DNA of 64,000 nt, taken from positions 32,001-96,000 of the forward strand of contig CAVPJU010000002.1 in NCBI GenBank assembly GCA_963705505.1. The letters are read 5' to 3'. Numbering within the stretch: position 1 is the stretch's first letter; each line of letters starts with the position of its first letter. Position numbers and translations under genes: made by a program. Origin of the DNA: an uncultured bacterium (GTDB taxonomy: Bacteria > Desulfobacterota_D > UBA1144 > Nemesobacterales > UBA2774). Shown here one piece after another: positions 16,720 through 28,285 of this stretch. The notes under the pieces were generated by a model. That model saw nothing but the letters and a program-made list of their open reading frames with translations. It did no database searches and had not been told where the DNA came from.

Positions 16720-17535
16720 ATGTTGAATTATATAAAGATAACTTCAATAGTAGCTTTCCTTATCTTTCTTACCGCGGTTTCTTCAAAAGCGGCGATATTC
16801 GTACAAAACGTATTTTCGAACGTAAATACCAATCCGGTTCCGTTTACACAATCAGTTGTCGACACGCCCACGGGCGGTCCGGGTGACTTCGAAATAATCA
16901 CGTGCGGAACATTTTCAGGCGGCGGAAACACTTTCCTCGCCCCCGGGCCCGACATATTCGATCCGGTTGACCTGGGGAGCTGCGGCAGCGGCTTCGGATG
17001 CATACAGGGAATCTGGTCGAGGTTCGTCGATACACAGGGCGCATCGGAAAATTTCTGTAACTGGACAAACCAGACAAACGTGTTCGGCGCGGGCAGCATA
17101 AGGTGGAGCGGTGTTGACCGGGATAATCCGATCGTTGACGTCGCGTGCAATACGGGTGAAAGTGAGGTCGCAACCGCGCCTTCCGCGGACGCCGAGGAGG
17201 GGTCGTACGTCGCGAGGGTATATACGCTGACTCCCTCACTCGATAACCTGGTCGGCGGAACCGCATTTATAAACGGGGAATTTACCGCAACCGCCGTTTT
17301 AGAATCCCTGGAGCTGGTAGTGCACGGGAAAACCGACCCTGCGGAGGGTGCCGGACCTACGGGCACATCCGATTATTCAATCGAGAGGTTCTCCTCCTGG
17401 AGGGCATGCACTATCGTGCTGAGGGCTGCTCCGACAAATATCCCGACGCTCTCCGAATGGGGGCTCGGCGTATTCGTCGCTCTTACGGGCATAGCGGCTG
17501 TATGGGCGCTAAGAAGGCGGGCTCAGAGGGCTTAG
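16720..17535 (+). CDS. IPTL-CTERM sorting-domain surface protein
   Basis: Signal peptide; C-terminal IPTLSEWG + TM + RRR. Confidence 0.92.
   Translation: MLNYIKITSIVAFLIFLTAVSSKAAIFVQNVFSNVNTNPVPFTQSVVDTPTGGPGDFEIITCGTFSGGGNTFLAPGPDIFDPVDLGSCGSGFGCIQGIWSRFVDTQGASENFCNWTNQTNVFGAGSIRWSGVDRDNPIVDVACNTGESEVATAPSADAEEGSYVARVYTLTPSLDNLVGGTAFINGEFTATAVLESLELVVHGKTDPAEGAGPTGTSDYSIERFSSWRACTIVLRAAPTNIPTLSEWGLGVFVALTGIAAVWALRRRAQRA
17456..17531 (+). repeat. 76-bp perfect direct repeat, copy 2 (coding tail of the IPTL gene)
   Basis: Identical to 16562-16637. Confidence 0.95.
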
Positions 17536-17662: not shown

Positions 17663-18637
17663 TCAAACCGTGCCTTTCGTCCTTATGGACTCGAGCACGG
17701 CGCGGACGTCGTAGAGGTCGTTTACGACTACGGCTTCGATCTCGGCGAGGACCTGAGAGTAACTGTTTCTCGCCCTTCCGCCCACCACGACGGGCAGACC
17801 CGGCAGATACCGTCTTAGTTTTCTCAGCTCCCGCGCAACCAGAGGGTCGCTTTCGGGATAGATCACGCTCAGGATGAGGGCCTTCGAATCATTATACGTC
17901 ACTGTCCCCGCTATCTCCTCGGCAGGGAGGCTCGGCCCGAGATACGTCACATTCCACCCCTCGCTCGCCGCAGTTACTGCCGCAGAGAGCGCCCCGATCT
18001 CGTGCACCTGGTCAGAAGGGGTGGTCACGACAGCATGAGGAGCGCCGGGAAATGTCTTTTGTGAAGCAAGGAGGCTCCCGAGAAAAGTCCTCACGGCCTG
18101 CGTCGCTAAGTGCTCGTGGGATATCCTCAACTCCCCCTTCCGCCAGAGGTCGCCTATCTTCTCCATGGCCGGTATTACGACGTGGTCGAGGAGGGCGTTC
18201 CTCCCCGTCTCGGTCTCTATCGCCAGCATTATCTCTTCGAGGGCCTTACGGTCCATACGCTCGACCGACGAGATGATGCCGTCTATATAGTTATTGTAGT
18301 CCCTGACTATCGACAGATCGCCCGCCTTCAGAGGCTCGACGATCCTTCTCTGAGGGAGGTCTATCACATTCATCCTGTTGACTATGTCCTGAAGCTCTTC
18401 TCTCGAGTACCCGGCAATCTGGCTTATCGGGTATCCCGCCCCTGTCGCCTTCTGGAGCAAAGAGAGCCTCTCGATGTCACCCTCCCCGTAGTATCTCCTG
18501 TTGTTCGAATCCCTCCCGGGCGTAACCACTCCGTACCGCCTCTCCCACGCCCTTATCGCATGCGGGGTGAGACCCGTCATCCTCGAAGCCACCTTCATGG
18601 AAAACTTTCTCTTAACGTCCTCCCGGTTTTCGTGCAT
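17663..18637 (-). CDS. carH: CarH/LitR-family B12-dependent MerR-type photoreceptor repressor
   Basis: MerR HTH with RAWERRYG; W-x9-EH (WRKGELRISHEH); cobalamin Rossmann motifs QVHEIG, YLG, VVVGG; the ORF-track TTG start at 18673 is the -35 hexamer, so ATG 18637 is preferred. Confidence 0.92.
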   Translation of the reverse strand: MHENREDVKRKFSMKVASRMTGLTPHAIRAWERRYGVVTPGRDSNNRRYYGEGDIERLSLLQKATGAGYPISQIAGYSREELQDIVNRMNVIDLPQRRIVEPLKAGDLSIVRDYNNYIDGIISSVERMDRKALEEIMLAIETETGRNALLDHVVIPAMEKIGDLWRKGELRISHEHLATQAVRTFLGSLLASQKTFPGAPHAVVTTPSDQVHEIGALSAAVTAASEGWNVTYLGPSLPAEEIAGTVTYNDSKALILSVIYPESDPLVARELRKLRRYLPGLPVVVGGRARNSYSQVLAEIEAVVVNDLYDVRAVLESIRTKGTV

Positions 18638-18644
18638 GGGTATA

Positions 18645-18673
18645 ATCTTAAACCCGTGTCTAACATATGTCAA
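18645..18673 (-). promoter_or_regulatory. carH promoter with overlapping operator
   Basis: Minus strand TTGACA (18673-18668), TAGACA 11 bp later (18662-18657), -10 TAAGAT at 17-bp spacing, ATG 7 nt downstream. Confidence 0.75.
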
Positions 18674-18808
18674 GGTCGAGCCATTATTTAACAGGAAACT
18701 TTCATTTACTTATATCACTCATTTAATAGTGCTATATAACTTCTTCGCATATTGCAATAAAAAAGTTTGAATCGAAATATTTATTCCCTTCGGCAGCGGT
18801 GCTCAAAG

Positions 18809-18878
18809 AAGACAATATTAAAACATATACTTGACATAGGCTAGACAACACATTATTATATTAGACAAATACTAGACA
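18809..18878 (+). promoter_or_regulatory. Sigma70 promoter overlapped by tandem 11-bp CarH operator repeats
   Basis: AAGACA 18809, AAAACA 18820, TTGACA 18831 (-35), TAGACA 18842, TATTAT 18854 (-10, 17-bp spacer), TAGACA 18862, TAGACA 18873. Confidence 0.85.
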
Positions 18879-19159
18879 GTCATTCAACTTTAGTGATGGG
18901 GTTCAAACCCGGTCGGCGGCCATTGGAAAGGGGGGCAAAAGATTGGATATAGAGCATATGAGAGGAGCTGATTACGACGGGGATTCCCGGCTGAGAAGGC
19001 GGCTACTCGCCATAAATCGGGTAATTCAAGCGGCCGGACAGAGCGGACATACGCCGGGAAGTAAGAAATTCTATAAATTTGGGAACGGGGTGAATCCCGG
19101 CCCTTGTAAATTGAGTCTAAAGGTATATATAAGGAATATAGAGAGAAGCGGGGGGAAAT

Positions 19160-20323
19160 GTGAACATGATGGATAATGAGTTCGACAGAACATTTTACGA
19201 TTCCGGCGATTTCGACGAATCCGATTTTTTTAATACAGTCGGCACGGCGAGGACGCATGGGAGGGGTTCAGCATCTGAAGCCCTGGACAACGTCTACGAG
19301 GCTTTCAGAGGACGAGAGGACAGACAGCCGGTAAAGCCCGGAAAGAAATCGAGGGGCAAGGAAAAGAAATGGACGAGATACGAGGAAGAAAGGGTCCTCC
19401 AGGTCTATTTCAGAGACCTCCTTACGGAGCCGCTGCTGACGCCTGCGGACGAAAAGCAGCTCGGGGCAAAGATAAAGGAATGCGAAAGGAACGCGCGGAA
19501 GATACAGAAGGAGCTCGAGCGCCTGGCGAAACCCAGGCAGAAGGAACTGCCCGCGAGGGACAAGAACAGGCTCGACGTCACGAGGAAGTTATATTCGGAT
19601 AAGGCGCAGGAGCTCAAATCGAAGTTTATAAGGTCCAATCTCAGGCTGGTCGTAAGCATAGCCAAGAGGCACCTCGGCAGGGGGCTTCCGCTGACGGACC
19701 TCGTTCAGGAGGGGAACCTCGGCCTCATAAGGGCTGTCGAGAAGTTCGATCACAGAAAGGGCTTCAAGTTCTCGACGTACGCCGCATGGTGGATACAGCA
19801 GGCCCTCACCAGAGCGATTGCCGAAAAGACGAGGACAATAAAGGTGCCGGTCTACGTGCTCGAGCAGTCGGGCAAGGTCTTCAGGGCGAAGTATGCTCTC
19901 GAGGAGGAGCTCGGAAGAAAACCGCTCCCCGAGGAGATCGCCGAAAAAGCCGGGCTTTCGAGGGAGGTAGTACAGGCGGTCATAGACGGGACCGACAGCG
20001 TGCTCTCGCTCGATAACCCCGTAACCGACGACAACGAAAAGACGTACGTGGACATGATGCCCGACGAGCGCGGGGGACAGGAATCCGCCGTTTCAGAAAT
20101 CAGGGTCAGGAAACTCATCGACGAGTCCCTTTCGTCACTTACACCGAAGGAAGAGGTGGTAGTGAGGATGAGGTACGGCCTCGGCGAGGAAAAGATATAC
20201 ACGCTCGACGAGATCGGGAACAAGTTCGGAGTGACGCGCGAGAGGATAAGGCAGATAGAGAAGAGCGCGCTCGAAAAGATATCGAAGTCCGGGCTCGGCG
20301 AAACGTTGAAAGGATACCTCTAA
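19160..20323 (+). CDS. Alternative sigma70 factor, RpoD/RpoS-like (regions 1.2, 2, 3, 4)
   Basis: NLRLVVSIAK, DLVQEGNLGLIRAVEKFD, GFKFSTYAAWWIQQA, TLDEIGNKFGVTRERIRQIE. Confidence 0.95.
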   Translation: MNMMDNEFDRTFYDSGDFDESDFFNTVGTARTHGRGSASEALDNVYEAFRGREDRQPVKPGKKSRGKEKKWTRYEEERVLQVYFRDLLTEPLLTPADEKQLGAKIKECERNARKIQKELERLAKPRQKELPARDKNRLDVTRKLYSDKAQELKSKFIRSNLRLVVSIAKRHLGRGLPLTDLVQEGNLGLIRAVEKFDHRKGFKFSTYAAWWIQQALTRAIAEKTRTIKVPVYVLEQSGKVFRAKYALEEELGRKPLPEEIAEKAGLSREVVQAVIDGTDSVLSLDNPVTDDNEKTYVDMMPDERGGQESAVSEIRVRKLIDESLSSLTPKEEVVVRMRYGLGEEKIYTLDEIGNKFGVTRERIRQIEKSALEKISKSGLGETLKGYL

Positions 20324-20706
20324 AACCCGAAAGCCGGATTCGGCTTTAAATCCCAATTACAATGAAAACTAACGAAAAAGCCCGCGTGCTCCTCACCGGA
20401 GCCGCGGGCTGCATAGGCTGAAGGCTCCCACAGGACTCCGGGGCTCCCTCTGCCGGAAGTCCGTTTATCCCCTCCACGAACTCGTATTCGACGGAATGAT
20501 AAGGGCTGTCGCCGGGGAAACGGAGTCGCTCCGGGAAAAAATTTCAGACGCGTAATTTTTAAGTGGAAACGGCGTTCGTTACGGAGTAGAATTGAATCAG
20601 GGCATCCCGCACCGCCGGGCTGACGTTTACGAGAGAGAATCCGGCACCCGCAGAGGGCGTGCGTCATTTAACCGATATTAATTTCAGGAGGCATGGGAAA
20701 CGGCGG

Positions 20707-22080
20707 ATGATACACGGCAGAACTATTTTCTGGTTCAAGCGGGACCTCAGGACGCACGACAACACCGGGCTCTATCACGCCGTAAGGGACAGCAGGGAAG
20801 TCATCCCTCTCTACATACTCGAGGACTCGATACTGTCGAAGTACCCGCAGGGGAGTAAACGCCTCGGATTCTTCTCGGACGCGCTCTCGAACCTCGACGG
20901 GGAGCTCAGGAGACTCGGCTCGTACCTGCTCGTTCTGAGAGGCAAAGCCGAAGAGATAATCCCCGCCCTCATAAACTCGCAGAGGGTCGAAGCCGTTTAC
21001 ACGAACAGGGCTTACGGCTTCTCGGGGGTCAAGCGGGATCTCGGCGTCGAGCACCAGTGCAGGTTCCACGACACCGTGTTCAAGAAATTCGACGACACGT
21101 TCCTCGTCCCGCCTCACGAGATCGACCAGAGAAAGGTGTTCACCCCGTTTTACAGCATCTGGCAGAGCAAGAGGAAGAGCGAGCCCCTTCCCGCGCCGCA
21201 GAAGATAACCTCCCCTCCCCTCTCGCCCGTATCCGTCGAGAGCCTGACGAGCGAACTCGGCAGCGGTGAGAACAAATACTGGCCGCCCGGATTCCCCGAG
21301 ACGCGGTTGAGAGACTTCAACTTCGCCGATTACTCCCTCACCAGGGACTACCCCTATCTGGACGGCACTTCGAGGCTGTCCCCTTACCTCAGGTTCGGCA
21401 TAGTATCCGTAAGGAAGGTCTACGAGGCCGCCGTCAACGCATGCCCGGAGTCCGACTCGTATATATCCGAGCTCGCATGGAGGGAATTCTGGTACCACAT
21501 CATGCACAACTTCCCCGAGACGAGGGGACTCGAGTTCCAGGAAAAGAGGCGGAACATAAAATGGATAAACAGCGAGAAGTGGTACGACGCATGGCGCGAG
21601 GGACGCACAGGGTACCCGATCGTGGACGCCGGCATGAGACAGCTGAGGGAAGAGGGCTGGATGCACAACCGTGTGCGGATGATCGTCGCGTCTTTCCTCA
21701 CGAAGGACCTGATGACGGACTGGAGGTGGGGAGACAGGCACTTCTTCGAGCATCTGGTGGATTACGACGAGACGGTTGATATAGGGAACTGGCAGTGGTC
21801 CGCTTCATGCGGGGCAGACCCCAAGCCGCTTCGGATATTCAACCCGATGCTGCAATCGCAGAACTACGACCCAGAATGCATATATATCAAGCGGTACATA
21901 CCGGAGCTCTTTTCCATAGACCCCGAGAAAATACACAACCCCCTCACATACAAGCTCCCCTACCACAGGCCCATGGTGAACCACTACGAGATGAGGAACC
22001 TCGCCCACGAGGCTTACTCGGGGGGACGCATCGACGACGAGTACATTTCCCAGATCAAGAAGGACCAGGGTTTTCCGTGA
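20707..22080 (+). CDS. phrB: Cryptochrome/DNA photolyase family protein (class I CPD-like)
   Basis: WFKRDLRTHDN, TSRLSPYLRFG, ELAWREF, TGYPIVDAGMRQL, GWMHNRVRM, GNWQW; ORF opens at 20659. Confidence 0.93.
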   Translation: MIHGRTIFWFKRDLRTHDNTGLYHAVRDSREVIPLYILEDSILSKYPQGSKRLGFFSDALSNLDGELRRLGSYLLVLRGKAEEIIPALINSQRVEAVYTNRAYGFSGVKRDLGVEHQCRFHDTVFKKFDDTFLVPPHEIDQRKVFTPFYSIWQSKRKSEPLPAPQKITSPPLSPVSVESLTSELGSGENKYWPPGFPETRLRDFNFADYSLTRDYPYLDGTSRLSPYLRFGIVSVRKVYEAAVNACPESDSYISELAWREFWYHIMHNFPETRGLEFQEKRRNIKWINSEKWYDAWREGRTGYPIVDAGMRQLREEGWMHNRVRMIVASFLTKDLMTDWRWGDRHFFEHLVDYDETVDIGNWQWSASCGADPKPLRIFNPMLQSQNYDPECIYIKRYIPELFSIDPEKIHNPLTYKLPYHRPMVNHYEMRNLAHEAYSGGRIDDEYISQIKKDQGFP

Positions 22081-22082
22081 CA

Positions 22083-22125
22083 ACAGCCCCCGCCGGGCGT
22101 CGCTCCCGCAGGCTGTGGTTTTTTT
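22083..22125 (+). terminator. Possible intrinsic terminator after phr
   Basis: ACAGCC...GGCTGT stem followed by a T run. Confidence 0.45.
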
Positions 22126-22157
22126 GAGCTATTGGCTACACTAACCTGAGGCGAGAC

Positions 22158-22943
22158 ATGGCTATAAGCGTGCTGATGGCATACGAGCCCCTGGAGAAGA
22201 CGGGGGAGAAATACGGTTACTGGCGGAGCTATATATCCTTTTACGAGAGCTTCAAGGACGGCCCCGCGACCCCCAATTCGGCCTGGTACGGGAGCGAATA
22301 CGACGCCTTCAGGGAATCCCTCTCAAAAGAGCTCGGCATAGAGAAGCGTCTGATAGAGGACTGCTTCTTCATGAAGGACGAGGACGGGAATTACTTCGTC
22401 ACGCCCGTGGGCTCGAGCGCGAACCCCAATATATTCAGCGCCGAGAACTTCATCCCGCTCGAATGGTTCCTCATGTATGACGGGAGCGAAAAGAAATATT
22501 TCTTCACCCACACGGGCTTCGGCGCCATACGCCAGGACGCGGTCTACTACAACACGAAGGTAAGCGCGGCCCTCCGGAGGCTCGGGGAAGCCGTAAGCGA
22601 CATGGACGCTTTTCTCGCCTCGACCCTATCCTCAGGCAGTCCGACTCTTACAGGCGTGCTGAACGACCTCAAATCAGGCGCTGAGAACCTGGCGCACTGG
22701 CTCTCGGGCTTCGACCCGGAGAGCTTCGTTATGCTCAACTACGGCGAGATATGCTCCCGCTTCGACCCCGATTCGATGAAGAACGAGGACTCCGTATCCG
22801 AGCTCAGGCTCGTGCTCACTCTCGCCCGCGAGGGCATCGCAGGTGATGCCGAAAAGGTGCTCGCCATGCTCCTCTCGAAATGGGAAGAGATAAACAGCTC
22901 CTTCACGCCCTCGGAAGAGAAGCGGCCGTCCACGCTCCAGTAA
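22158..22943 (+). CDS. Hypothetical cytoplasmic protein
   Basis: 261-aa ORF with host-like codon bias, between phr and ybgA; no motif recognised. Confidence 0.8.
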   Translation: MAISVLMAYEPLEKTGEKYGYWRSYISFYESFKDGPATPNSAWYGSEYDAFRESLSKELGIEKRLIEDCFFMKDEDGNYFVTPVGSSANPNIFSAENFIPLEWFLMYDGSEKKYFFTHTGFGAIRQDAVYYNTKVSAALRRLGEAVSDMDAFLASTLSSGSPTLTGVLNDLKSGAENLAHWLSGFDPESFVMLNYGEICSRFDPDSMKNEDSVSELRLVLTLAREGIAGDAEKVLAMLLSKWEEINSSFTPSEEKRPSTLQ

Positions 22944-23016
22944 AAATTACGATCTGAGAGATTTATAGTAAATTTAGCAGCATAAACAAATTCATCACCC
23001 TGGTTCAGGACCGAGC

Positions 23017-23196
23017 ATGAGAACCTTTCCGAGACCCATCATAGTGACGAGCATGTGCTTCGAGTTCGACGCCTGCAGATACAACGGTCAGACGATCCCC
23101 AATAATTTCGTCCAGGCTCTCGAGCCGTGGGTCGAATTCAGGCCCGTCTGCCCCGAGCTCGAGATAGGGCTCGGCGTCCCGCGCGACCTGATACTC
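23017..23196 (+). pseudogene. ybgA: 5' part of a DUF523/DUF1722 (YbgA-like) gene, interrupted
   Basis: SMC...CRYNG...VCPELEIGLGVPR, the DUF523 N-terminus; similarity stops after PRD. Confidence 0.88.
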
Positions 23197-23403
23197 GAAG
23201 TCCCTCGCGGCAGCGCGGAGGTATATCAGAAGGAGAAGTAGTATTGTCGGGATTATTATTAGATAATAACCTGAATGGACAAACAAAAGCACATCCACAG
23301 ATGGATGTCGGGTACTTGGACATTTTCCTTTAAAGTACCAGACAGTCTCAACCTATTTTACTCGAAGGTGCCGAAGTGATCCGAGAATCTGCAAGACCCC
23401 ACT

Positions 23404-25026
23404 CTATTTCGAGTCCACGGGCTCGATAATGAAATCGGGCGGAGTGAGGCCCACAATGCAATCGATATCAGGCGCGTTAGGCGTCGAGAAGAACGATCTG
23501 ATTACGTCTTGAGCGCAGTCGGACTTTGGCACGACGAAATGACCGACACCGGGAATTACGATGAACACCGAATTCACGAGTGAATTGGCGACACCCTCAG
23601 CCAGAAGCGGCGAGGTGATAGCGTCGTAGCTGCCCGATATGACAAGCGTCGGGATGGGCTTGCCGCTAAGCGTGCGCTGCCTCTCAGGACCCTTCGGGAC
23701 TTTCCAGACGTCGCAAATCTCCGTCATGAATGGAAATTGCGGCGGTTGGGCCAACACCGAGTCCGGAAACGTCGGAAACTGGATTCGCCCCTGCTTGACT
23801 ATATTGTCAGGGGACTCGTAAGGTACCCACTCACTGCAGATAACTCCGTTTTGCAGACCAAAACTAAACTCGCCCTCGTGCGTGACACCCACTATGGCGT
23901 ACAGCGCGAGAACGTCATGCGTCATTCCGCGATCCATCTGGTCAATCAACGCCGGCAGTATGGTAGGAAAGGCTTCCGACAAACCGACCGCAGTGATCTC
24001 AAACGCTCCGCCGTCGACCACGACATGCACAGGCTGAGCATCCGGCGATGGGGGCTGTCCGGGAAATGCCGGTATCACATCACCTTCAGCAGGATTTGAT
24101 TCAAGTTGGTTCACCACTCGTGCGAAAGTATCGCCTATGTTCGAATAGCGATTGTGGCACGCGGGCTGGGCTTCACATTGACGGAAGATCTCATGTAGTC
24201 CTTCTCCAGCATTGGTCCAGAAGTCGCCCATAACGGTGTAAGGGGGTACGACGGAATCTATAGCCACGCTGCGAATGCCTTCGGGATGCTCACGCATGTA
24301 GGTTAGTGCCAGATCAGTACCGTAGGAGACGCCGTACACATTCCATTCCTTGATGCCGAGCGCTTTTCTGAGATCGGCGAAATCGGCTGCGTTCTGTATG
24401 GAATTGTAAGCGCCGAGATCCACTCCCTCAGCCATCAGGCGTTCGTAGCACTCGCGCGACGCATCGACTAACAGTGTGCCGCTCTCATCGCTATCATACC
24501 GCAAACCGACTGTACTCGCCCGGGCGCGATCTGACTCCGGACAAAGGAGAGCCGGATCAGTGAATAACGTCCCCCGCTGATCCATGATTATCAAATCGCG
24601 GTCGCGGTTAATTCCGGCAACTTCAACCAACAGGTCGGCAGACGGGAGAGCCGCACCGCCGGGGCCGCCGACCATATATACGATAGGGTCCGGCGCTGGG
24701 ACTTCAGCTACAGCCGGTATGATTGCTACATTCAGGCGTATCGTCTTCCAATTGTTTTTGTCGCGGTCTTCCGGCACTACCAGCTGACCGCATTTTGCAT
24801 TCTTGAGCGATGATTGCGGGGGATTTAATTGCGGACAGGGACCAGGCTCGAATCTCGCCTCCTGCAGGTTGTTAGATTTGTTACACCCGCCATAAACGAA
24901 AAATGCGATAGCCAGCACAAGTACGCATAGAATTGGAAACCGTGTCCGCCCATCACACATTTTCTTCCGAATTATCACGGAGCGAATACACTCCGCCAAA
25001 CCGAATCTTGACGGATATCGAATCAT
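23404..25026 (-). CDS. Alpha/beta hydrolase, TAP-like peptidase, probable lipoprotein
   Basis: GGPG, DQRG, GVSYG, YDAIT, GVGH; YGGC lipobox; start probably near 24960. Confidence 0.88.
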   Translation of the reverse strand: MIRYPSRFGLAECIRSVIIRKKMCDGRTRFPILCVLVLAIAFFVYGGCNKSNNLQEARFEPGPCPQLNPPQSSLKNAKCGQLVVPEDRDKNNWKTIRLNVAIIPAVAEVPAPDPIVYMVGGPGGAALPSADLLVEVAGINRDRDLIIMDQRGTLFTDPALLCPESDRARASTVGLRYDSDESGTLLVDASRECYERLMAEGVDLGAYNSIQNAADFADLRKALGIKEWNVYGVSYGTDLALTYMREHPEGIRSVAIDSVVPPYTVMGDFWTNAGEGLHEIFRQCEAQPACHNRYSNIGDTFARVVNQLESNPAEGDVIPAFPGQPPSPDAQPVHVVVDGGAFEITAVGLSEAFPTILPALIDQMDRGMTHDVLALYAIVGVTHEGEFSFGLQNGVICSEWVPYESPDNIVKQGRIQFPTFPDSVLAQPPQFPFMTEICDVWKVPKGPERQRTLSGKPIPTLVISGSYDAITSPLLAEGVANSLVNSVFIVIPGVGHFVVPKSDCAQDVIRSFFSTPNAPDIDCIVGLTPPDFIIEPVDSK

Positions 25027-25291
25027 CCGAAATTCTTCCTTCTCAAACCTATCATCGAGCGTCCTGTATTCACCCGATAATTAGTCAGATTTCGCTAATT
25101 GTATTATGGAATAATTTGTATGAGTACGGCATCCGATATACCATTTTATTTGTATAATAAACTGTATAATAAACTGATAAACTGATAGACTACTGACTAA
25201 TTATACCTTTGATTTTATTAGGAAGTGTAATTTTTAGCAAGATCCTTGGAAAATCACTGCAATAGATATATATCATTGAATATTATCGCCC

Positions 25292-25524
25292 GCCGGACTC
25301 GACTGGGAGGAGCATGTGAGGATCGACCCCCGTTATTTCAGACCCGTGGATTCGAAGGGCATAGGGCGGACTCTACGAGGGCGAATAGCGAACACCGATG
25401 GGAGCCCCGGATAAGGCTCAGGGAGCTTTTAGGGATAAGTGTTGACTCGGACATGATGGCTCAACCACCGAAGCCGCCTGTGGAAGGGGAGAGCGTGCTC
25501 TTGGAGAGGTTCCCCGCGAGATAA
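25292..25524 (+). pseudogene. gmd: Degraded 3' fragment of GDP-mannose 4,6-dehydratase
   Basis: AGLDWEEHVRIDPRYFRP, then after a frameshift ADSTRANSEHRWEPRIRLRELLGISVDSD. Confidence 0.75.
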
Positions 25525-25769
25525 TGGAAAACCGGGTGAGCAAGCCATCGTCGAGAACCCGAAGGCCCTGTTTTCATGGTCCAGGTTGGTTGTCAAGATA
25601 GTTGCGTTCCCCGCCCACTTTTTTCTCTCACGTATCATTCCCAGAATTAAATGCTTAATCGATGGACAATTTATTCTCTTTTCTTGTATTAATTGTGTCT
25701 ATAATTGTATGATTGAAGCTAATGGCGATACCGATGTATTTCTTACGAAGACAATTTCCGGAGATGTTT

Positions 25770-27209
25770 ATGAAGGGGATACTAAGCATTTTTCTAATTA
25801 TATTGCTTATTACGGCATGCGACGACAGCGGTAATGTGCATGATTGTTTCAGTGCGGATGATTTTCAGGGCGCGGATTGTCTAGCTGAAGCCATGCTAAA
25901 TTCGTGCAGCAGCATAGGCTGCAGCTCCAGGGATGCGGAATTGACGCCGCCGCTCTCACCTATTTGCAAAAAAGTCAATTGTTCATCTTTCGATTGCAAT
26001 GAAGTCTTGTACACAACCGATGGAGAGACTTTCACCGCACCGGGAACTATTACGAATCTGCACCTTGAGAATACAGGGGAGCTCGGAGGAGTCATAACTG
26101 TTGGGGGAAAGGAGCAGAAAATTGAATGCGCAGTAGACACCGGACCTGCGCCATCGACCGCAGTCATAGCCACTCCCATACATGATGCGCTCGCCGTACC
26201 CGGCGATGACGGAATGATCCATGTCGAATACGACCTGCTCTTTACCAACACATTTGCGTCTCCCGTAACGCTTAAGACTATCGACGTCACCGATATTTCG
26301 GGCACTCTTCTGATGCGCTTAGAAGGTGCACGGCTCTCAGCAGCGACTCAGAATGTGTTCGATCAAAAGGTCATTTCGGAGATACCGGCGTCGGGCTCTG
26401 CCGCAGTCGAGGTAGACCTGATTCTCAAACCAGGAACGGTTCCAGAACGATTATCCCACCGTATCGTTTATGACTTCTTGGACCAGGACCGGTCTGCGGC
26501 AGCCATCTCTTCGCGGGAATTCACTGGCCCCGAGCTTATGGTGGACCCACGCGAGCCGCAACAAATCATATCCCCGGTCTCGGGAACGGAATGGGCATCG
26601 TTTAACGGCTGCTGCACTCCGAACCGGCACCGCGATACGAGAATTGGGGCGGGCACGCGCATCGCCACGGCTGAAACATTCGATATAGACTGGCTCAAGC
26701 TGGAAAACGGTCGGTTGTTCAGCGGTGACGGTTCCGAGAACACGGATTACTTCTGCTTCGGCGCGCCGATCGTCTCGGCCACGGACGGCATTGTAGTCGA
26801 CGCCCGCGACGGTGTGCCGGACAGCATTCCGAATATACCTCCGACTAACATACACACTCCTAGGGATTTCAGCGGCAACTTCGTCGTAGTTCGTGTACGA
26901 CCGAAGGTTTATGCCATTTATGCGCATCTTGAATTAGGCTCGGTCACCGTCAAGATCGGGGATATCGTTAAGGCGGGAACGCTCTTAGGCAGACTCGGAA
27001 GCTCCGGGAATTCCACAGCGCCTCATCTGCATTTTGGGATAGTAGATCAGCAGGACCCGACTACGGCGAACAGCCTGCCGTTCGTGATAGACAACTTCGA
27101 ACTTACCGGAATAATCACAGGAGACGAAAACAACCTGAATATTCAGCCGGTCTCCCGTTCGGTTACGGACGCATACCCGCTCGTTCTGGGTGTAGCGACA
27201 TTCAAGTGA
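25770..27209 (+). CDS. Lipoprotein with Cys-rich N-domain and M23-family peptidase domain
   Basis: ITAC lipobox; GNFVVV, YAHL, LGRLGSSGNSTAPHLHF. Confidence 0.85.
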   Translation: MKGILSIFLIILLITACDDSGNVHDCFSADDFQGADCLAEAMLNSCSSIGCSSRDAELTPPLSPICKKVNCSSFDCNEVLYTTDGETFTAPGTITNLHLENTGELGGVITVGGKEQKIECAVDTGPAPSTAVIATPIHDALAVPGDDGMIHVEYDLLFTNTFASPVTLKTIDVTDISGTLLMRLEGARLSAATQNVFDQKVISEIPASGSAAVEVDLILKPGTVPERLSHRIVYDFLDQDRSAAAISSREFTGPELMVDPREPQQIISPVSGTEWASFNGCCTPNRHRDTRIGAGTRIATAETFDIDWLKLENGRLFSGDGSENTDYFCFGAPIVSATDGIVVDARDGVPDSIPNIPPTNIHTPRDFSGNFVVVRVRPKVYAIYAHLELGSVTVKIGDIVKAGTLLGRLGSSGNSTAPHLHFGIVDQQDPTTANSLPFVIDNFELTGIITGDENNLNIQPVSRSVTDAYPLVLGVATFK

Positions 27210-27269
27210 GACGAGTCGAAGCTAAAAAAATGCTTTCGAGGATGTTCGACGAAAACGAGTTCCTAAGTG

Positions 27270-27297
27270 TGACCTGCCCCCGTTAATAGGTCCATAG
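27270..27297 (+). mobile_element. Isolated IS3-family (IS407-like) terminal inverted repeat
   Basis: TGACCTGCCCCCGTTAATAGGTCCA resembles IS3/IS407-group ends; no transposase follows. Confidence 0.55.
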
Positions 27298-27616
27298 ATT
27301 AAGTTAGATCTTCGAAAGAGATCCCCATATAAAGGAGCTCATCGGAATAGTTCGATCGGCCTTAACGCATACGTTTCAGTAGCTGTTCATATACGAAGTC
27401 ACAGATATTAAATCACCTCAGTTTTATGCGAGTTTTATGCGGAAAATAAGCAAAAATAAGTAAACTAGCTGGTTTCAAAAACCTCAAAACCCTAATGTTT
27501 CGCTTTTATAATACGTCTAATAAAGTGTGTCAAGACTCAGTAACGAAACAATATTTTGATCGAAAATCTAACAAAATCTATAGGTTCTGAAATCGCTAAA
27601 ACAAGTGATCAGTTTA

Positions 27617-28285
27617 ATACTCAAGAGCCGCTCCCCATCGTGCGGAATAAAGGACGCGAAGGAATTCCCCGACGCGGAGAACGAGATAGCGACGGGCAAG
27701 GGCGCGGGAATCTTCGCCGAAAGGGTCATGTCAAAATTCCCCGGACTCGCGGTCGAGGACGAGGGGAGACTCAGGAACTTCAGGATAAGGGAGCACTTCC
27801 TGACCAAGCTCTACACGCTCGCGAGCTTCAGAGGAGTGAAAAAGGCGGGGAGCGCCAATGCCCTCGTGAACTTCCATACGGAGAACAAGTTTCTGCTCAT
27901 GTCATACAGCGGGAAGGAGATGAGGGCATTAGGCAGAATAACCGCGAATGCGGAAGGGAAACGCCCGGAAATATTGATCGCCGAGTACGGCGAGGGTCTT
28001 CGGCATGCGCTCGCGTCCCCGCAGAGGAGGTCCTCAGGCATAAACGTCCTCATGCATGCGCTCGGATATTTCTCGGACAGGCTCACCGGGAGGGAGAAGG
28101 CCTATTTCCTCGACCTCCTGGAGGCGTACAGGAACGAGAGGATACCGCTCAGCGCCGTACTTGCCGTGCTTGAGTCCTGGGTGATCAAGTACGATGAGGA
28201 TTACCTCGCGCGCCAGACCTTCTTCGAGCCTTATCCGAAGGAGCTGATGGAGATCTCAGACTCCGGCAAGGGGCGGGAGGTGTAA
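27617..28285 (+). pseudogene. ybgA: 3' part of the DUF523/DUF1722 (YbgA-like) gene
   Basis: ILKSRSPSCG, G.GIFA, EDEGRL, FH..NK.LLM.Y, NVLMHALGYF, YLARQTFFEPYP. Confidence 0.9.

Follow-up and report, generated by a model that had tools for sequence, protein, structure and literature searches.

A CarH-type B12 photoreceptor gene paired with an RpoD-like sigma factor gene in Dadabacteria: a predicted light switch

Introduction

In Streptomyces, the LitR-LitS system combines a B12-dependent repressor of the CarH/LitR family with a divergent sigma factor gene in a two-step design (PMC11519972). LitR represses both of the divergent promoters in the dark (PMC11519972). The locus that we describe here resembles this design. 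It lies in a 64,000-nucleotide stretch (the window, G000:C2:32001-96000) of the genome of an uncultured bacterium (G000; 2.88 Mb, 93.6% complete) from a lineage called Dadabacteria here. A carH gene is divergent from a gene for an RpoD-like sigma factor, and a photolyase-family gene (phr), a gene for a 261-amino acid (aa) protein and a broken ybgA follow. LitS differs from this sigma factor in that it belongs to the extracytoplasmic function (ECF) type, has its own promoter consensus and acts on crt targets (PMC11519972).

We propose, with a probability of about 0.6, that a CarH light switch gates a spare RpoD-like sigma factor with a small light-stress gene set. In the dark, CarH carrying adenosyl-B12 (AdoB12) would bind pairs of repeats, spaced 11 bp apart, over both divergent promoters. 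Light would break AdoB12, CarH would leave the promoters, and the sigma gene would be transcribed. The sigma factor would then serve a small set of light-stress genes and not the whole genome. This design is supported by the CarH motifs, the position and conservation of the operators, the pairing of the two genes across the class, and the placement of the sigma factor among its paralogs.

Results

CarH and its operators

The CarH protein combines a MerR-type DNA-binding domain, a four-helix cap and a B12-binding Rossmann domain, and the MerR_1, B12-binding_2 and B12-binding domains all score above the Pfam cut-offs. Its closest match in the PDB is Thermus CarH (5C8D, E 1.6e-25), with which its WERRY helix aligns. 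The upper-ligand motif W-x9-EH is present (W177, E187 and H188, counted from the TTG at 18673), as is the lower-histidine motif (H224-x2-G227, S269, I271 and G298-G299), published as H-x2-G-x41-S-x-T/V-x22-27-GG (PMC9304148). The initial annotation, made from the sequence alone, had called this protein a CarH/LitR photoreceptor with W-x9-EH and cobalamin motifs. That assignment stands, with the correction that Gln222 replaces the Asp or Glu expected two positions ahead of H224. All 25 aligned CarH rows, including four from other phyla, have this Gln; judging from the alignment, we regard it as a trait of the clade and do not take it as excluding these proteins from the CarH or class I LitR group.

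Some relatives have CarH proteins 76-81% identical to that of the studied genome, and carH is under purifying selection. Among 21 aligned Dadabacteria proteins, the Trp is present in 20, both His residues in 21, the GG in 19 and the complete W-x9-EH in 20. The likely start of carH is the ATG at 18637, on a leaderless mRNA, because the upstream TTG at 18673 is itself the -35 box and the ATG lies about 7 bases past the -10. The cofactor is likely present and used in the host, since the genome encodes a PduO-type adenosyltransferase and four genes of the methylmalonyl-CoA mutase family. Two TonB receptors matched in a search for BtuB, both under the cut-off. One relative, G024, carries a second CarH-like gene (L162, G024:C2:7050-7943) that is 25% identical and has no adjoining sigma gene.

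The promoter of the sigma gene and operon, P1, has the sequence TTGACA-17-TATTAT at 18831-18859. Two tandem repeat pairs (18831/18842 and 18862/18873) lie on either side of its -10 with an offset of 20 bp, and degenerate repeats are found at 18809 and 18820. A third repeat pair covers carH's own -35 at the same 11-bp spacing and is predicted to be a site of autorepression. The sigma promoter had been described as buried in TnnACA repeats at 11-bp spacing; the promoter and the repeats are real, but the repeats form two offset pairs and no single ladder. The layout of the carH promoter is the same in 18/18 Dadabacteria rows and in the one Ignavibacteria row aligned. These repeats agree with the published CarH operator consensus and its overlap with the -35 (PMC9304148).

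The pattern T[AT]GACA-N5-T[AT]GACA occurs three times in the whole 2.88-Mb genome, and all three occurrences lie within a span of roughly 220 bp in the carH-sigma intergenic region. The count of three alone is not evidence, because the same hexamer pair occurs genome-wide twice at 12-bp spacing and three times at 15-bp spacing. The exceptional feature is instead the clustering of the repeats and their conservation. In the region 18601-19165, three TnnACA pairs at 11 bp were observed against a mean of 0.0075 in shuffled sequences, and none of 2000 shuffles reached three. Pattern and presence counts were taken over 41 genomes, 23 with a close CarH and 18 without. The exact operator pattern is found in 22 of the 23 carH genomes (in the remaining one, G008, carH sits at a contig end) and in 2 of the 18 genomes without carH, where the contexts of the matches are unrelated.

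In G010, G014, G022, G028 and G038, additional repeat pairs adjoin a conserved gene of about 88 aa, and in G028 a pair also lies ahead of a fasciclin gene. Because of these extra pairs, CarH has a small predicted direct regulon in these five genomes; in the studied genome the prediction covers one locus only. The gene at the second repeat pair (L234, L236, L237, L238 and L239) encodes 86-108 aa without a Pfam match and is a likely further CarH target. It is divergent from a pyridoxamine-oxidase-like gene in two of the five genomes.

Conservation of the carH-sigma pair

In all 19 genomes, from four families, whose contigs allow a judgment, an RpoD-like sigma gene lies divergent to carH; in four other carH genomes, carH sits at a contig end. 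The pairing was also found in 12/12 further loci, ten of them from genomes of about 1 Mb in the other Dadabacteria order. A wider search for CarH, over 120 genomes of the phylum, detected a diverged CarH in 14 of the 19 genomes of this ~1-Mb marine family. There, the sigma gene is beside CarH in 10/10 loci retrieved (of 15 matches), and a DUF1731 epimerase gene and pdxH follow the sigma gene in 9/9 loci with enough sequence. Fifteen genomes from the family of the studied genome carry carH, sigma, phr and the 261-aa gene side by side. The initial annotation had suggested a search for carH-sigma-phr synteny, and the carH-sigma adjacency is conserved.

The genes that accompany the pair vary. Many relatives carry fasciclin and SDR/DUF2867 (short-chain dehydrogenase/reductase) genes in the operon, and in other families the DUF1731 epimerase gene and pdxH follow the sigma gene. 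Of four carH loci from other phyla, three have parts of the same cargo and two have the operator, and no sigma gene was found within the available flanking DNA. Among metagenome loci, the sigma gene was seen in 14/33, and in none of the eight, several of them short, in which CarH is 37-44% identical. In the studied genome, the DUF1731 epimerase gene and pdxH are found without an operator near rplQ (G000:C10:845248-846801), the place where G030 has its carH-sigma pair; these positions suggest that the pair has been relocated in the studied genome's family. On the other side of carH, an IPTL-CTERM protein gene adjoins it (16720-17535), and relatives have between none and four tandem paralogs there.

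The sigma factor

Sigma regions 2, 3 and 4 are recognized by Pfam, and region 1.2 is present too. The studied genome has 11 RpoD-like genes, ten of them non-primary, and relatives have 2 to 11. The true RpoD is encoded by a 530-aa gene on C6, after an open reading frame that reads as primase-like from its sequence. The product of the carH-linked gene has RpoD-like regions 2.4 and 4.2 beside this separate primary sigma factor, and it can be classed as group 2-type.

Two sigma trees were built with LG models. One had 65 rows, with 12 rows removed beforehand, and the other had 42, with a further 23 removed; the removed rows were near-duplicates, short or on long branches, and neither tree had cyanobacterial rows. 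The 65-row tree, based on regions 2-4, places the ten paralogs in one Dadabacteria expansion (support 93/63) that is sister to RpoD and outside RpoS. With 42 rows, the approximately unbiased (AU) test was compatible with a single clade of CarH-linked sigma factors (p 0.50) and rejected a clade with RpoD (p 0.031).

Three other identities for this protein were rejected. It is not the housekeeping RpoD, given its 387 aa, the separate 530-aa gene and the AU result. Its place in the tree and a TIGR02394 score of 253 bits (cut-off 378.7) argue against RpoS, and the presence of regions 3 and 1.2 argues against an ECF factor of the LitS type. The four-domain, non-ECF sigma factor of the initial annotation is therefore supported, and it is not the housekeeping one.

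The sigma gene evolves under purifying selection, with a ratio of nonsynonymous to synonymous changes of ~0.11-0.13, a rough estimate, against three congeners. The sigma factor is not expected to recognize promoters of its own kind, because the region 4.2 helix is of the RpoD type and the change of His455 to Tyr in region 3.0 is common to most paralogs. Region 4.2 is nearly identical among the up to 11 RpoD-like sigma factors of Dadabacteria. No ortholog-level match to the sigma factor was found in the near-complete genomes G015, G025 and G029.

Other paralogs have neighborhoods of their own. One follows a gene that reads as sodA-like from its sequence in distant families. In a second module (L148, G000:C6:179936-184043), the other 261-aa paralog and a MerR_1-type gene are divergently oriented, and another RpoD-like sigma gene and an HhH-GPD (nth-like) gene follow. 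This module has the same logic as the carH-sigma locus and is kept, with variations, in several families.

The photolyase-family protein

The phr product shares 34% identity with E. coli Phr and is the sole photolyase-family protein found in the studied genome. Its gene is under purifying selection. Class I and archaeal enzymes outscore class III photolyases and plant cryptochromes in sequence and fold comparisons. The fold is closest to the Anacystis and Sulfolobus photolyases, with template modeling (TM) scores of 0.85-0.86 against class I and archaeal structures (1QNF/1OWL, 1DNP and 2E0I) and 0.83 against CRY1 (1U3C).

Two residues at the flavin are unusual for such an enzyme. Asp358 occupies the site of E. 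coli Asn378, next to the flavin N5, and Asp343 occupies the site of Glu363. Asn at site 378 is described as conserved in photolyases of the cyclobutane pyrimidine dimer (CPD) and 6-4 types as well as in DASH proteins, with Asp marking plant cryptochromes (PMC9356274), and Asp at the flavin site destabilizes the fully reduced flavin (PMC10940379). Thus phr lacks the Asn that is a trait of class I CPD photolyases. It has the Asp of plant cryptochromes and lacks the long C-terminal extension that is a cryptochrome feature (PMC8653763), as its chain runs only 16 residues beyond the end of the E. coli protein.

Among 121 homologs, site 378 is Asp in 75 and Asn in 46. The Asp rows form one clade (76 tips, support 0.97) in which 75 tips have Asp, and genome copies of phr have Asp in 23/24 readable cases from three families. 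Site 363 is coupled to this change: it is Asp in 74 of the 75 Asp378 rows and Glu in all 46 Asn378 rows. The lone Asn row of the clade, a G011 protein (L191 / P0193), has Glu363 as well; judged from its sequence and position, it could be either a natural reversion at both sites or a long branch that is misplaced.

The CPD pocket of phr is complete (E274, W277, N341, R342, M345, W384 and R226), and so is the Trp triad. Across the 75 Asp rows, no variation is seen at E274, W277, M345, W384 or the Trp triad; R342 is kept in 74 and R226 in 73. N341 is replaced by Gly in 23 of the 75 Asp rows and in 10 of the 46 Asn rows. A cryptochrome-like protein had been claimed for this gene, and the Asp at site 378 bears this out, but the CPD-binding residues of a repair enzyme are kept.

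P2, P3 and the search for a sigma regulon

Promoter-like elements precede phr (P2) and the 261-aa gene (P3). Both resemble sigma70-type promoters in which the -10 is good and the -35 odd, and CarH repeats are absent from both. P2 is conserved in 14/23 loci scanned and is a single copy in the studied genome. In other genomes, five more sites match P2 exactly; their contexts are unrelated, and two of them are within genes. P3 overlaps a weak terminator-like hairpin (22106-22118) and was found in 18/20 loci tested in the family of the studied genome and in 0/11 other loci with a start found; it too is a single copy here. From their position, P2 and P3 are the best candidates for targets of the sigma factor.

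Distal copies were not above chance. Matrix scans of the genome gave three P2 sites over 15 bits, against 0-4 with permuted matrices, and six P3 sites, against 3-15. Genome-wide counts of the core patterns gave nothing above controls. A combined P2/P3 class had no peak at 17-bp spacing, whereas TTG-type promoters do peak. Neither a phytoene synthase nor an iron-sulfur (FeS)-type photolyase was found in a search of the 93.6% complete genome.

Neighboring genes and the insertion

The coordinates of the locus are collected in Table 1. The order of phr and the 261-aa gene on the strand of the sigma gene is as the initial annotation had it, but an SDR/DUF2867 remnant sits between sigma and phr, and ybgA is split. 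A single five-gene cascade, as had been proposed, is doubtful because ybgA is interrupted in this genome and because the 261-aa gene, like phr, has its own promoter-like element.

Table 1. Features of the carH-sigma locus (positions in the window)
Feature	Coordinates	Strand	Remarks
carH (LitR class I homolog)	17663..18637, open frame to 18673	-	Pfam, PDB match and motifs; start from promoter alignment
carH promoter	18645..18673	-	-35 18673-18668, -10 18650-18645; repeat pair over -35
Sigma/operon promoter P1	18831..18878	+	-35 18831-18836, -10 18854-18859; repeats 18842, 18862, 18873
Non-primary RpoD-like (group 2-type) sigma	19160..20323	+	387 aa; first ATG 19166
SDR/DUF2867 gene remnant	20362..20549	+	Start with stop codon, and final 44 codons; whole in relatives
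Promoter-like element P2, before phr	20563..20592	+	GTRGAA-17-GTASAAT type; no CarH repeat pair
phr, photolyase/cryptochrome family, class I CPD-like	20707..22080	+	Asp358, Asp343
Promoter-like element P3, before 261-aa gene	22114..22142	+	TAGGGA-17-TAMACT type
261-aa protein gene	22158..22943	+	Homologs labeled PF26312
ybgA 5' piece	23017..23188	+	2-thiouracil desulfurase domain PF04463; frame runs to stop 23241
Insertion	23189..27613		4.4 kb; GC 0.50, against 0.55-0.59 in surrounding genes
Alpha/beta hydrolase gene in insertion	23404-25026	-	
M23 peptidase gene in insertion	25713-27209	+	
ybgA 3' piece	27614..28285	+	End of PF04463, and DUF1722

The 261-aa family is present in 41/41 genomes, mostly as two paralogs, and has remote relatives elsewhere. 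The gene at the carH locus is under purifying selection. Its product had no Pfam or NCBIfam match in the profile libraries searched (PF26312 was outside that copy of Pfam). A structure model is confident (predicted local distance difference test score, pLDDT, 84), and it gave no Foldseek match at E<=0.001, a best Z of 5.5 in a wide search, and no usable Atlas match. The second paralog is directly upstream of another RpoD-like sigma gene in 6/8 loci inspected, and the 261-aa protein might thus be a sigma partner; however, this paralog remains beside nth in G025 and G029, where that sigma gene is missing. The 261-aa gene is not clearly a CarH target, to judge from its context, because it has its own element P3 and because its copy in G015 sits by trpS with no carH, sigma gene or phr.

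ybgA is whole in relatives; here, homology ends at 23188 and restarts at 27614, and some 125 bp are gone. In two runs of close strains, contigs connect 23186/23188 with 27617/27620; these strains are therefore without the insert, and the insertion is strain-specific. No contig crossing from ybgA into the insert was found among the close-strain contigs, and the insert might still be a mis-join in this assembly. From its sequence and distribution, we regard the 4.4-kb insertion as not part of the light module. Within it (25026-25713 and 27269-27616), one fragment matches C10:57106-57345, and another stretch, which recurs at C10:400638 and where contig C7 begins, is possibly a small mobile repeat.

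In G036, a larger ultraviolet (UV) cluster (L166/L246, G036:C7:698000-709000) contains ybgA, uvdE, genes for SDR/DUF2867, peroxiredoxin-like, DUF1731 epimerase and NADH dehydrogenase proteins, pdxH, and an Asp-type phr, with a 261-aa homolog divergent from it. That genome has no close carH match.

Discussion

By analogy with the biochemistry of Thermus and Bacillus CarH, from which we infer it, dark repression and release by light at this locus are probable. The sigma factor itself is probably a working group 2-type factor, whose conserved regions point to promoter preferences that overlap those of RpoD and of its paralogs. We are more tentative, at a little under even odds, about its nearest targets: these may be the operator-free elements P2 and P3, in a two-step local switch to which read-through from P1 would add.

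Several observations weigh against a CarH light switch that gates this sigma factor. In addition to the Gln at position 222, the protein scores far under the NCBIfam CarH model (102.6, cut-off 400), and the CarH of G030 is without the Trp. The CarH proteins of the streamlined marine family lack both histidines in 10/10 paired loci, so B12 photochemistry is not needed for the pair to be kept. G017 and G020 (97-98% complete) gave no match to carH and keep the sigma gene, phr, P2 and P3, which also argues against tight coupling. In the tree, support for the group of CarH-linked sigma factors is weak (85/64), and an unlinked paralog is nested within it. The step to local targets relies on position: P2 and P3 have no clear common -35, and the spacing peak of a shared promoter class is missing.

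Some of these observations would fit a CarH that is mainly a sensor of B12 availability or oxidative damage, with the sigma factor as a general stress paralog and light as a minor input. CarH represses only when bound to AdoB12 (PMC8156234), the source runs of close strains are wetland, soil and peat, the sigma locus is kept with a His-less CarH or none at all, and other paralogs adjoin stress genes (sodA-like and nth). We consider this very unlikely, since the Trp and His needed for photolysis are kept in 20/21 copies and 15 genomes have a linked photolyase-family gene. The initial annotation had gone further, with light de-repressing a sigma factor that redirects RNA polymerase to many distal promoters in a possibly genome-wide program. 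Such reach would suit a full four-domain factor that is under purifying selection and stays beside carH even in ~1-Mb genomes. The DUF1731 epimerase gene and pdxH, which follow the sigma gene in other families, are found elsewhere here without an operator. Group 2-type sigma factors act on degenerate, housekeeping-like promoters that would escape motif scans. Nevertheless, none of the four distal-promoter searches, including those for P2 and P3 copies, rose above chance. Regions 4.2 and 3.0 are shared with paralogs, and ten similar paralogs would compete with this one of 11 for the same promoters. The two light-defense genes that were not found in the 93.6% complete genome leave few known targets. 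The genome-wide program is unsupported, and we hold it to be unlikely; a switch with a small light-stress gene set remains our preferred account.

The role of phr bears on how many light inputs the locus has. On balance, its residues suggest that the product still repairs CPDs with a retuned flavin. It could instead be a bacterial blue-light cryptochrome, independent of the plant ones, that serves as a second light input and does no repair. The near-fixation of Asp378 (75/76 clade tips) and the coupling of Asp363 (74/75) favor this, but the Trp triad and most of the CPD pocket are invariant or nearly so in the same rows, sequence and fold both match class I and archaeal photolyases best, the tail is only 16 residues, and the gene is the only one of its family found in the genome. 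Moreover, Val377 and Asn381 are common to the Asp clade and the Asn-type outgroup, and a single Asn-to-Asp change is reported to be insufficient to make a cryptochrome (PMC9356274). A pure cryptochrome therefore seems rather unlikely, and the small remaining probability goes to a protein with both functions or with neither. Still less probable is a complete two-pigment circuit, in which a green-light B12 switch would control a dedicated RpoD-like sigma factor and, through it, an independently evolved bacterial cryptochrome with the plant-type Asp and a compensating change. If true, this circuit would be a natural snapshot of the transition from photolyase to cryptochrome under a group 2-type sigma factor.

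Whichever role phr has, the Asp378/Asp363 clade offers a direct way to test what else, beyond the replacement of Asn by Asp, makes a photoreceptor out of a repair enzyme. In the literature searched, where most subscription papers were out of reach, we found neither a bacterial Asp378 clade nor a kept repair pocket combined with Asp378 and Asp363; likewise, no paper on Dadabacteria sigma factors or their expansion was found there. The main text of a Dadabacteria genome survey (PMC8115339) has no mention of sigma, photolyase, cobalamin or B12. No paper pairing CarH with an RpoD-like sigma factor was found in the literature searched, a scope outside which the supplements of PMC8115339 and PMC9304148 lie. 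The pairing gives a definite, testable input to one of the ten paralogs of a sigma expansion that is apparently undescribed. The carH-sigma pair is old, in that it spans both Dadabacteria orders and survives genome streamlining, and intact and His-less CarH proteins can be compared. The CarH, sigma and phr proteins could be expressed in E. coli without culture of the host.

Parts of the locus have counterparts in several described systems. Pseudomonas class II LitR proteins (PplR/PmlR) also control phr and small oxidoreductase genes; however, they are B12-independent, work with a LOV protein, and have a cluster without a sigma gene (PMC9758184). In E. coli, ybgA likewise adjoins phr, and these two genes are ordinary neighbors of LitR-family regulators. 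The phr product shares its fold, CPD pocket and Trp triad with class I CPD photolyases and the Asp at the N5 site with plant CRY (1U3C). Cyanobacteria have several non-essential near-primary group 2 sigma factors, such as SigB and SigD, some of them induced by high light (PMC3637157, PMC8875361). These belong to a separate expansion in a phototroph, and the abstracts of the two papers do not mention control by a B12 photoreceptor.

The CarH proteins of Thermus thermophilus, Bacillus megaterium and myxobacteria (5C8D, PMC9304148) have the same domain order, W-x9-EH motif, lower His and 11-bp TnnACA repeats over the -35 as the CarH described here. In the latter, Gln replaces the acidic residue, and the first target is a sigma gene and not carotenoid genes. 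Published CarH operators consist of three or four tandem repeats (PMC9304148), in contrast to the two pairs with a 20-bp offset at P1 and the one pair at the carH promoter. Unlike LitS, the sigma factor of this locus is RpoD-like, with regions 1.2-4, and is one of ten paralogs; no specific promoter class was found for it, and no phytoene synthase was found in the genome. The locus would thus extend the CarH-to-sigma design from ECF to RpoD-like sigma factors.

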